From Escherichia phage vB_EcoM_NBG2, in the sequence record NC_054925.1: a stretch of 64,000 nt of DNA; one strand, written 5' to 3'. Positions 2 through 33,004 of the stretch are shown in pieces (position 1 is the stretch's first letter; the number at the start of each line of letters is the position of its first letter). The notes beneath the pieces are model-generated. The model was given only the letters and a program-made list of their open reading frames with translations. It searched no databases and had not been told where the DNA came from. The translations under genes and the position numbers were made by a program.

Positions 2-1488
<1,487 letters not shown>

Positions 1489-30413: not shown

Positions 30414-30462
30414 CCTTTGTTTGTGTAAGATAATACTATCACAAAGGAACCATACTGTAAAC
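30414..30462 (-). promoter_or_regulatory. early promoter with stem-loop (PeSL-like)
   Basis: Minus GTTTAC, 18 nt, TAGTAT; 7-bp inverted repeat CCTTTGT/ACAAAGG. Confidence 0.55.
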
Positions 30463-30480
30463 AACTTTGTGCAATCTTTG

Positions 30481-30510
30481 GAAAATAAAAAAGGACTCCC
30501 GAAGGAGTCC
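30481..30510 (-). terminator. rho-independent terminator after the 30.9-like ORF
   Basis: GGACUCC-UUCG-GGAGUCC hairpin followed by UUUUUUAUUUUC on the minus transcript. Confidence 0.8.
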
Positions 30511-30515
30511 TCAAC

Positions 30516-30692
30516 TTATGCTTTCTGCTTACCAAAACGAGAAGCATCATCTCGAAGAACCGCACGTGCTCGGCGCATGATCTTCTCAACAGTTTGATTG
30601 ATACGAGAGTTCGACCCACGCTTGTAACCAGCGCGTTTAGAATCACCAACTTTCTTTTCAACTGCTTTCTTTGCTTTAGCTTGTTTTGCCAT
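30516..30692 (-). CDS. small basic protein (30.9-like), start trimmed to ATG
   Basis: 58 aa MAKQAKAKKAVEKKVGDSKRAGYKRG...; ORF track N-terminal extension judged unlikely. Confidence 0.5.
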   Translation of the reverse strand: MAKQAKAKKAVEKKVGDSKRAGYKRGSNSRINQTVEKIMRRARAVLRDDASRFGKQKA

Positions 30693-30997
30693 TATAAATT
30701 CTCTTTTAAATGAAAATGCAGGACTTATTGGCATTGCCTGCGCAAGCCCTCAAGGGGAACATAGGTTTTGTATATTTACCGACAGGATAACCATAAACCT
30801 CGTCAACATACCTTATAGCTCTTATCTGTTGCACACCGTTAGCTTAAAGGTTCCGGGTTCGATTTCTCGAGGATAAGATATATACTGATGGATATATAGG
30901 CCTTGAGGCGTACTCCCGATTGGCCATCACCTCGGGGTAGCATGCACTTGCCGCTATAAGAATAACATTCAAGAGGTACACCATAAAACTGCCGGGG

Positions 30998-31028
30998 TCT
31001 TAAAACTATAATGATTCGCAAATCATTA
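30998..31028 (-). terminator. terminator-like hairpin downstream of rIII
   Basis: Perfect 8-bp stem UAAUGAUU-UGCG-AAUCAUUA followed by UAGUUUUAAG on the minus transcript, 60 nt after the rIII stop. Confidence 0.55.
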
Positions 31029-31089
31029 ATCAGACAGTTCGATGGCTCCTCGATTTTAGCTCACACTAAGGCAGTGAATCTCCAATAAA

Positions 31090-31338
31090 TTACTTCAGTG
31101 TTACCACAAAGTGACGAACTGCTTTTCGTGCGGCAGAAGCCAGAGGCTTAGCATATTTAAGTTCATCTTTTTCCTGGAGCTCAGCAGCTAATGCAGTTTG
31201 AGCAGGATTCAGATGTTTGAAATAACGCAGGATTTCAAGAGCTTCGGCTTCAACATCAATAGATGCGCCATAGTTTTCGTGACCATTATTCCATGCGTTT
31301 CGTTGCAGTTCAAGAGCGTGTTGTAATTGTTTAATCAT
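31090..31338 (-). CDS. rIII: RIII lysis-inhibition accessory protein
   Basis: 82 aa, position between the 30.x genes and gene 31, sequence recognised. Confidence 0.85.
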   Translation of the reverse strand: MIKQLQHALELQRNAWNNGHENYGASIDVEAEALEILRYFKHLNPAQTALAAELQEKDELKYAKPLASAARKAVRHFVVTLK

Positions 31339-31485: not shown

Positions 31486-31821
31486 TCACTTATAAAGACA
31501 CGGAATAGCTTTATAATGACATGTTACGAATTTTTGTTTAATTTCTTTTGGCTGCTTAAGACCCAGAGCTACAAAAGGATGCGGAACGTTTCGAATTTGA
31601 CCAACTGGAAGAGAAGTCAAATCACCAACTTCGCAGAAACCTTCAGGAACATCAGGACCAACAGAGTGAACTACACACAGTTCAGGAACTTCACCTTGAA
31701 CACGTTTACCGATAATAAGTCCTGATTCTGTAACTTCTTCATCACCGGCTTGCGCAGGTTCAGAAACTAAAATAACATATTCACCGACAGCACGAATTGG
31801 TAGCTGTTGTACTTCAGACAT
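31486..31821 (-). CDS. 31: co-chaperonin gp31 (GroES analogue)
   Basis: 111 aa; sequence recognised as T4 gp31. Confidence 0.95.
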
Positions 31822-32186: not shown

Positions 32187-32423
32187 TTATTTACCTATCA
32201 CAGTTTTAATATGAGTTGTTCCACGTTCTTTAAGAGTGGAAAGCAATTTTTGGCATTTTTCTAAATCAGATTTCCAACTATACGGTCTATCAATACAAAC
32301 CCAGTTTGACTTATAATACTGCTTCCATTTAGAGAAAAAATACTTCTTATACTCTACAGCAAATGAAATGTTCTCGTTGGAATAAGAACTAATTGCTGTG
32401 AGTTGTACCAAACGAAATTTCAT
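32187..32423 (-). CDS. hypothetical protein (31.2-like)
   Basis: 78-aa ORF. Confidence 0.55.
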   Translation of the reverse strand: MKFRLVQLTAISSYSNENISFAVEYKKYFFSKWKQYYKSNWVCIDRPYSWKSDLEKCQKLLSTLKERGTTHIKTVIGK

Positions 32424-33004
32424 TATTCACCACAGAATTCGTTGATATTTTCCCAGTTTAACTTATTCAAGTTTTTCTTAGGAACATTGAACACTTCAAT
32501 ACCCGCATTTCGCAGAATATCATCCCAACCAGGTTTATTTTTATCGTATGTTTCGCAATAAACCAGCTTTTTAATTCCAGATTGAGCTATCGCTTTTGCA
32601 CAATCTGGACAAGGAGAAAGTGTTACATACATAGTAGCACCTTCAATTGAAGAACCATTTCGTGCAGCAAACAAAATTGCATTTAGTTCAGCATGAATTT
32701 CATTTTTAGACGACCATTCAGAATGAGCGCTGCGGTGTTCTTTCGCCAAAACAAAACGATCAGTTGAACCAAATGATACGCATTCAGGCTTATGACCTTG
32801 AATGATAGTATGTTTAGGCTTATTCAGCAACCAACCTTGCTCAGCAGCATAATCACAACAGTTCACACCACCTGCCGGAGAACCGTTATATCCAGTAGAA
32901 ATAATACGTCCATTCTTTTCAATTACTGCTCCTACCTTCCAGGAGCAACATTTTGATTCTTGTGATACTAAATATGCAATTTGAAGTACTGTACTCGCTT
33001 TCAT
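32423..33004 (-). CDS. cd: dCMP deaminase
   Basis: 193 aa; zinc-binding deaminase motifs HAELNAI and PCPDCAKAI. Confidence 0.95.
   Translation of the reverse strand: MKASTVLQIAYLVSQESKCCSWKVGAVIEKNGRIISTGYNGSPAGGVNCCDYAAEQGWLLNKPKHTIIQGHKPECVSFGSTDRFVLAKEHRSAHSEWSSKNEIHAELNAILFAARNGSSIEGATMYVTLSPCPDCAKAIAQSGIKKLVYCETYDKNKPGWDDILRNAGIEVFNVPKKNLNKLNWENINEFCGE

Follow-up and report, generated by a model that had tools for sequence, protein, structure and literature searches.

A conserved, structured RNA cassette in the gap between rIII and 30.9 of T4-like phages

The stretch of Escherichia phage vB_EcoM_NBG2 analysed here (NC_054925.1; 64,000 nucleotides (nt), hereafter the window) is a segment of a Tequatrovirus, a T4-like phage. 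Between the stop codon of rIII and the start codon of 30.9 it has a gap of 397 nt (30693..31089), which an earlier note had described as a GC-enriched, hairpin-rich island that could be a structured RNA, an attenuator or a decayed foreign insertion. That observation was real but diffuse. The actual feature is a sharply bounded structured RNA, supported by covariation, which lies on the minus strand at 30812..30964. These 153 nt, referred to below as the cassette, are exactly what T4 lacks when the window is aligned with T4 and T2. The cassette is a previously undescribed structured RNA family, for which neither Rfam 15 nor the searchable literature has a match. Comparison of its copies indicates that it is very probably a functional structured RNA module. 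Overall, the best explanation is probably that of an autonomous module of ~150 nt, likely to act alone or with a host component.

The fold was derived from a structure alignment (A5) of 23 distinct copies in RNA sense, with a mean column identity of 82%. Nested helices were taken from RNAalifold and the loop-loop contact from a scan of all column pairs. In the final structure of 50 pairs, standard pairs filled 96.0% of cells, compared to 30-43% when the partners were slid by 1-3 columns. Changes on both sides were seen at 27 of the 50 pairs compared to 5-10 when slid, and in the shuffle control none of 500 shuffles reached the observed value on four of five measures. Over all pairs, 41 cells were G·U and none was A·C. 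This asymmetry identifies the folded strand as the minus sense, that of the rIII and 30.9 messenger RNAs (mRNAs), and the cassette thus has the sense of both flanking genes. The proposal of a structured non-coding RNA is therefore strongly supported by covariation, though for the central 153 nt (30812..30964, minus) only. On thermodynamic grounds the label 'hairpin-rich' did not hold, since the minimum free energy of the cassette is ordinary on both strands (z-scores of -1.2 and -1.1). The structural evidence is comparative, not energetic.

The fold bounded by helix P1 spans 30812..30960, and all of its elements lie on the minus strand. P1 pairs 30953..30960 (CUUAUAGC) with 30812..30819 (GCUAUAAG). 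Its sequence varies by lineage, complementarity is retained in the inner 4-9 pairs, and seven of the eight pairs change on both sides. P1 unites the ends of the cassette and closes a gapless four-way junction, in which P1, P2, P4 and P5 abut with zero unpaired nucleotides between them. The P2-P3 arm (30899..30952) starts with the invariant P2, GGC at 30950..30952 paired with GCC at 30899..30901, followed by an invariant internal loop of AAGUGCAU opposite CUCAAG. P3 (30932..30941 with 30908..30919) has 96.9% of its cells paired, and both sides have changed at five of its ten pairs. The P4 hairpin (30879..30898) has a stem of 7 base pairs (bp), 30892..30898 with 30879..30885, in which four of seven pairs change on both sides, 99.4% of cells are paired and the closing pair is U·G in 21 of the 23 sequences. 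Its 6-nt loop, CCAUCA (30886..30891), forms a 6-bp kiss with UGAUGG (30924..30929) in the P3 loop. The kiss is 100% paired in the 23 sequences and three of its six pairs covary (C-G/U-A, 16:7; G-C/U-A/A-U, 18:3:2; G-C/A-U, 21:2). RNAalifold had placed pairs inside the P3 loop (A5 columns 34-44, 35-43 and 37-42), and these were replaced by the covarying kiss. The P5 arm (30820..30878) encloses P6, P7 and an invariant GCAACA. P5 itself (UCUUAUC/GAUAAGA, 30872..30878 with 30820..30826) changes on both sides at four of seven pairs, as does P6 (30867..30870 with 30859..30862; loop GAAA, GUAA or UAAA) at three of four, and P7 (30854..30858 with 30833..30838) is invariant save for one compensatory change of A-U to U-A. 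Besides the internal loop after P2 and GCAACA, the invariant unpaired stretches include GGA(A/C)CC...GCUAA.

The cassette is found in some T4-like phages and is missing from others. The gaps of T4 (244 nt) and T2 (288 nt) are near-identical to the window on either side of 30812..30964 and do not have the cassette; RB69 is also cassette-free. At the cassette site T2 has a 44-nt filler (L002, ~1120..1165; RNA sense UACUAUCAUGCGUCAGAAAAGUGUUAUCUGUGUAAGUCUUGGUG) that resembles neither T4 nor the cassette, and at least three alleles of the site therefore exist within Tequatrovirus. A BLAST search of the gap against 50,697 phage records returned 994 matching records, 178 of them covering at least 80% of it. 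The central piece alone matched 406 of the phage records, compared to 994 for the gap and ~1000 T4-like phages, and with 407 places in these 406 records its copy number is essentially one per genome. Klebsiella phages of the genus Jiaodavirus match the window over the central 135 nt only, at 91-96% identity and at the same rIII/30.9 site. Carriers span at least nine genera, including Tequatrovirus, Jiaodavirus, Moonvirus, Karamvirus, Muldoonvirus, Roskildevirus, Kagamiyamavirus and Marfavirus, and their hosts are Escherichia, Shigella, Klebsiella, Enterobacter, Citrobacter, Salmonella, Yersinia, Serratia, Erwinia, Edwardsiella and Raoultella. One Karamvirus carrier, PS49, is recorded as an Aeromonas phage; every other named host belongs to the Enterobacterales.

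A covariance model built from A5 gave a single match in the window (30809..30964, minus; 187.7 bits, E 1e-38) and nothing in the T4 gap or the T2 gap. A 20-mer of the cassette had no exact match among contigs of 185,579 bacterial and archaeal genomes, and E. coli genomes gave no cassette match at E up to 10. Scans of IMG/VR and of metagenomes added T4-like contigs only. Two degenerate pattern scans of IMG/VR yielded 7 and 34 new loci, which were checked by the covariance model; all were chance matches rather than distant relatives, save one T4-like fragment (L061). Two loci from the first 20-mer scan (L018 and L040) were likewise chance matches by the model.

Conservation was measured between the window and six other genera, with a 135-nt core of the cassette set against rIII and 30.9. 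Core identity was 95.6, 85.2, 80.3, 71.6, 85.2 and 95.6%, compared to 66-74% for rIII and 59-87% for 30.9, and in five of the six comparisons the conservation of the cassette exceeded that of rIII and of 30.9 alike. For example, identity in Klebsiella phage 311F was 95.6% for the cassette, 73.9% for rIII and 86.7% for 30.9, and the corresponding values were 85%, 71% and 69% in Muldoon and 80%, 67% and 59% in Cronus. The sole exception was EcS1, whose cassette carries a 7-nt insertion, has its P3 remodelled and falls below its neighbours.

This conservation is not that of a protein. The 60-amino-acid open reading frame (ORF) listed earlier at 30839..31021 exists and starts with TTG. No reading frame is open across 25 cassette variants, in several of which the longest stop-free stretch is 28-31 codons, and the variants contain insertions or deletions of 1, 3 and 7 nt. 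The cassette thus does not have the conserved frame of a protein-coding gene or pseudogene. Relatives, in which the earlier note had allowed for a normal gene at this place, either do not have the cassette or carry the same non-coding sequence. Many GenBank records show short 'hypothetical protein' ORFs over the cassette, on differing strands and in differing frames; they look like artefacts, because no frame is conserved. In some records the feature under the 397-nt gap match is named '1,4-alpha-glucan branching enzyme, GH-13-type'.

The cassette was then compared with known RNA families. At gathering score, none of the 4227 models of Rfam 15 matched anywhere in the 64-kilobase (kb) window. 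Over the cassette there was no hit at E up to 10 on either 1001 nt or 181 nt, and the cassettes of five other carriers likewise gave none. The Rfam scan and the covariance analysis across phages, both proposed in the earlier note, thus gave no Rfam match and a covarying fold in 23 sequences. Nearby, the only weak hits (Atu_C8 and Phe_leader) were to the terminator after 30.9. The gathering-threshold scan also gave no group I intron hit in the window, though a td intron had been mentioned earlier; the intron either escaped the model or is absent. ARAGORN found no transfer RNA (tRNA) or transfer-messenger RNA gene in the window, and a T-loop look-alike, GGTTCGAT, is on the plus strand, not on the folded minus strand. 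The species 1 and 2 RNAs of T4 (rnaC and rnaD) are likewise stable, non-coding RNAs of ~120-140 nt (T4 annotation) in T-even phages. However, they lie at the tRNA-cluster locus, have no similarity to the cassette and are present in T4, which does not have it; homology was rejected, as the covariance model, with E allowed up to 10, gave no hit in T4 69000-74500.

Some resemblances were followed up and set aside. The cassette and E. coli rnpB (M1 RNase P RNA; L091, 317..693) share eight exact words of 7-10 nt, 62 nt in total: GUGCAACAGA, GAACCCGG (twice), CAAGGCC, GAUGGCC, UAAGAGC, ACCCGGA and AUAAGGUA. This total was reached in one of 2000 mononucleotide shuffles and the longest word in 61 of 2000. 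The resemblance is probably due to chance: the shared words are scattered over different RNase P domains, one of them falls in the P1 flank, which is variable, M1 RNA contains 'ACCCGG' more than once and no RNase P model matched. The stretches UCUUAUC...GAUAAGA and ACCCGG.AACC resemble parts of SAM-I and TPP riboswitches, but there was no model match and the helix order is different. An antisense target in the host was set aside, since no E. coli genome matched at E up to 10, in a search for which the conserved unpaired stretches, of at most 9 nt, would be too short to reveal such a target.

PeSL (early promoter plus stem-loop) cassettes are reported by Arbiol et al. (2010) to mediate modular shuffling in T4-type genomes. 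They resemble the present case in being small non-coding modules in variable T4-type regions, and module order is shuffled in the region of the cassette. In contrast to PeSL, the cassette has a complex multi-helix fold without a sigma-70-like promoter or terminator hairpin, and with no promoter-like or terminator-like site found inside it, assignment to PeSL was rejected. A further likeness is to the orphan phage RNA motifs obtained by comparative genomics, such as ROOL, GOLLD and others from the Weinberg/Breaker surveys (PMC5737381, PMC2864571). These are likewise defined by conservation and covariation, intergenic and phage-borne, and their invariant unpaired nucleotides point to a specific partner. 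The cassette matches none of those in Rfam 15, is far smaller than ROOL or GOLLD and, unlike them, is restricted to Straboviridae of enterobacteria plus one Grimontviridae phage. The openly searchable full-text literature, including queries by cassette sequence words, gave no description of the element, and T4-like phages are not mentioned in the main text of a 2023 survey that collected candidate structured RNAs from viruses and phages. Expression of rIII and 30.9 is the subject of a 2003 paper in Biologija, as cited in PMC9409239.

The one carrier outside the T4-like phages is PKM.Lu.22.1 (Grimontviridae, 76 kb), which has the cassette at 85% identity. The copy lies within a replication gene cluster, where it begins 5 nt past the end of an SSB-like gene (counted from the stop codon), whose product of 257 amino acids has no Pfam hit and ends in DFDDDCPF, an acidic tail of the SSB type. 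A strong canonical terminator (CCCCUCUUCGGAGGGGUUUUCUUU) follows ~50 nt past the cassette (L008, 1117..1200, minus), and the downstream gene encodes a phage protein of the sigma-70 family (Pfam regions 2 and 4). When 293 PKM.Lu.22.1 ORFs were compared by tblastn, at E below 1e-3, with a complete T4-like genome made up of the window and the remainder of BW-1, no convincing shared protein was detected. The three weak hits (E 4e-4; 5e-9, to a tail-type protein; and 2e-4) were rejected as phage protein partners. This suggests that the RNA travelled alone.

Within the rIII-30.9 gap, the cassette is the separate centre of a mosaic that is not uniform. On its 5' side is a module (30965..31089, minus) that is near-identical in T4 and T2, is not conserved outside Tequatrovirus and holds an A-U-rich palindrome hairpin, TAATGATT-CGCA-AATCATTA (31009..31028, minus). 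The 8-bp perfect palindrome noted earlier is therefore present. It would make a poor intrinsic terminator for rIII: all pairs of the stem but one are A-U, the U run after it is just four long, and it was not among the sites returned by the terminator scan. On the 3' side of the cassette is motif 2 (30764..30811, minus), a hairpin with a stem of 30780..30786 paired with 30798..30804 and a conserved loop of ~11-16 nt. Its sequence in the window is GACGAGG..CCUGUCG with the loop ..GGUUAUC, then GUAAA...AAACC; it is present in all T4-like phages examined, including T4, and three of its six predicted pairs show compensatory changes in 10 phages. Motif 3 is a mini-hairpin, (GUA)CCCCUUGAGGG(CUUG), at 30747..30757 (minus), conserved across genera and also found in T4. 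A hairpin of GCAGG..CCUGC at 30718..30741 (minus), again shared with T4, lies directly upstream of the 30.9 ribosome-binding site and corresponds to the stem-loop reported there in the earlier note.

The order of these modules is shuffled, and the position of the cassette relative to the others differs between genera. In the window the cassette comes first, followed by motif 2 and then motif 3. In Klebsiella and Serratia phages it stands after motif 2 and before motif 3, whereas COW86c, PS49 and EcS1 have motif 3 before it and motif 2 after it. Motif 3 is beside the closing stem of the cassette on the 5' side in the last three phages and on the 3' side in the Klebsiella and Serratia phages. 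In Cronus the cassette comes directly after rIII. The GC enrichment described earlier is present but modest: windowed calculation gave 41.6% for the gap compared to a window mean of 36.1%, with 8% of 397-nt windows equally high. Most of this excess is due to the cassette in the centre (45.5%, top 3.7%), the remainder of the gap being at 39%.

The non-coding gap itself is real and is set among genes that are all on the minus strand. Their order is cd (32423..33004), gene 31 (31486..31821), rIII (coding sequence 31090..31338), the gap, 30.9 (coding sequence 30516..30692), a terminator and 30.8, and the annotated order is identical in the T4, T2 and LZ9 records. The intrinsic terminator after 30.9 (30512..30491, minus) has a 9-bp stem with five G-C pairs and a U tract, and is probably the 3' end of the cassette-bearing transcript. 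The terminator scan found this site and one other (30554..30538), with no terminator-like site in 30693..31089. Since no promoter-like site was found in the gap or the cassette, the cassette is most likely made within the rIII-30.9 transcript. In several genera it begins 11-27 nt past the rIII stop codon, a close spacing for which co-transcription with the upstream gene would be the simplest reading. Directly after the terminator, at 30461..30433 (minus), is a promoter-like TTTACA-17-TAGTAT with an upstream TG. This pair of terminator and early promoter (30433..30512, minus) is PeSL-like and lies outside the cassette.

How might such a module work? In the mechanism that we favour, the closing stem P1 brings the ends of the cassette together at the gapless P1-P2-P4-P5 junction. 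The P2-P3 arm bends back, allowing its end loop to pair over 6 bp with the loop of the P4 hairpin. The working surface would likely comprise AAGUGCAU opposite CUCAAG together with the P5-P6-P7 three-way junction and its GCAACA. The module is optional, having been gained, lost and moved as a unit, and would serve as an accessory host-interaction or counter-defence RNA, not as a regulator of rIII or 30.9. Its patchy distribution in a hyper-variable region appears to be that of accessory host-interaction or counter-defence functions. Action alone or with a host component, either a protein or a small molecule, is suggested because no phage protein travels with the cassette, because flanking modules and genes differ between carriers and because the named hosts are all Enterobacterales but for that of Aeromonas phage PS49. 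That the cassette acts in trans with a host factor or ligand is, on these comparisons, a tentative proposal that may well turn out otherwise. More speculative, and on balance doubtful, is the idea that it is the first representative of a new functional class of RNA in virulent enterobacterial phages, either a novel self-cleaving ribozyme or an RNA-only counter-defence module. In the latter variant the RNA would bind a host target of defence or takeover, a protein or a small signalling molecule, and such a module could hop between unrelated phages because no phage protein would be needed.

Several points weigh against the favoured interpretation. The 23 sequences are closely related, so the shuffle statistics overstate significance, and at a mean column identity of 82% shallow divergence or recent exchange may account for much of the 'invariance'. 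The thermodynamic stability of the fold is unremarkable (z -1.2). The involvement of a host factor is deduced from negatives, namely a single non-T4 carrier compared by tblastn only, at E below 1e-3. T4 is the phage with transcriptomes, yet it is cassette-free. Covariation alone would also be compatible with a role of the same strand as single-stranded DNA.

Among the rival explanations, the one that survives best is that of a new ribozyme, self-cleaving or self-processing in some other way, which would cut the rIII-30.9 transcript between the genes. The natural hairpin ribozyme and the four-way twister-sister use four-way junctions. The cassette resembles the self-cleaving ribozymes of phages (hammerhead, twister, twister-sister, hatchet, pistol and hairpin) in its size range, same-sense intergenic location, patchy distribution and multi-helix junction with tertiary loop contacts. 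A ribozyme of ~150 nt lying between genes in their sense would account for sporadic occurrence and protein-free transfer between unrelated phages, as it would need no phage partner. The invariant internal loops and the loop-loop contact at a multi-helix junction are also in keeping with it, and the position of motif 3 on the 5' or the 3' side of P1, depending on genus, recalls permuted ribozyme architectures. However, the Rfam ribozyme models gave no match to it, either on 181 nt with E up to 10 or in five other carriers, a cleavage site could not be assigned and motif 3 occurs in T4 without the cassette. We therefore regard a ribozyme as unlikely, if worth keeping in mind.

A role in cis would be of two kinds: the cassette could act on 30.9 and the 30.x genes as a riboswitch or attenuator, or, like put or EAR, it could make RNA polymerase read through the downstream terminator. 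The cassette lies in an operon upstream of a strong terminator, at ~300 nt in the window and ~50 nt in PKM.Lu.22.1, and in both the genes continue in the same sense past the terminator. Its conserved fold is aptamer-like, as in a riboswitch, though this is not specific to riboswitches. Neither a conserved expression platform nor a consistent class of downstream gene was found across carriers. P1 is followed by motif 2 in the window, by motif 3 in Klebsiella and Serratia phages and by the terminator region in PKM.Lu.22.1, and the distance to the next gene ranges from 44 to 185 nt with no platform conserved in it. The neighbours in PKM.Lu.22.1 are unrelated to rIII and 30.9 on both sides, and T4 and T2 keep the genes, the leader hairpins and the terminator without the cassette. 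The attenuator for the 30.x/ligase operon put forward in the earlier note thus finds no support, as the cassette contains no terminator-like hairpin, no expression platform is conserved and the operon of T4 and T2 runs without it. Regulation in cis is accordingly distinctly unlikely, and a gene-independent cis role such as antitermination seems no likelier.

A third possibility is a passive stability element, whose compact fold would block exonucleases or RNase E and stabilise either the upstream message (rIII or SSB-like) or the downstream one. The compact closed fold and the start of the cassette 5-27 nt past the upstream stop codon in several carriers fit this. However, a barrier needs just a stable hairpin, the fold is not unusually stable, and the invariant unpaired nucleotides, the covarying kiss and the 95% identity across genera would be left unexplained, which makes this explanation improbable. 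The functional form could also be single-stranded DNA of the same polarity, serving as an initiation or priming signal or as a hairpin cluster for recombination or replication. G·T wobbles are tolerated in folded single-stranded DNA too, so the strand asymmetry is no proof of RNA, and the PKM.Lu.22.1 copy is in a replication cluster beside an SSB-like gene. We consider a DNA form very improbable, given that the polarity is that of the mRNA in every carrier and that GNRA-type loops, a four-way junction and a kiss of six pairs are features characteristic of RNA. In T4-like phages, the cassette site is not known to hold an origin.

The remaining explanation, a selfish or neutral remnant such as a decayed gene or an element like a miniature inverted-repeat transposable element (MITE), is suggested by the presence/absence polymorphism, the inverted ends formed by P1 and an AUGUU that flanks the window's cassette on each side, but it is largely refuted and scarcely credible, as the terminal repeats are lineage-specific yet complementary, the opposite of transposase-binding ends, other carriers have no flanking duplication, the window has no second copy, and there is no ORF remnant and a conservation above that of coding neighbours. 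A MITE or insertion sequence had been rejected on the same lines, with end repeats that covary instead of being conserved, no consistent duplication and about one copy per genome. Of the 'decayed foreign insertion' in the earlier note, one half stands, in that the cassette is present or absent as a unit and crosses phage families. The decay does not, since the cassette shows constraint above that on neighbouring genes and compensatory changes.

Although the T4-like phages are the best-studied virulent phages, the cassette RNA has apparently gone unnoticed. Likely reasons are that T4, T2 and RB69 are cassette-free and that many GenBank records carry spurious 'hypothetical protein' calls over it. 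What is new is the RNA family. T4 and T2, as natural cassette-free relatives, offer ready-made isogenic controls. The cassette has a well-supported fold with a tertiary contact and appears to have been exchanged alone between unrelated phage families. This pattern of exchange matches that of accessory host-interaction or counter-defence genes, and the gene product here would be an RNA.

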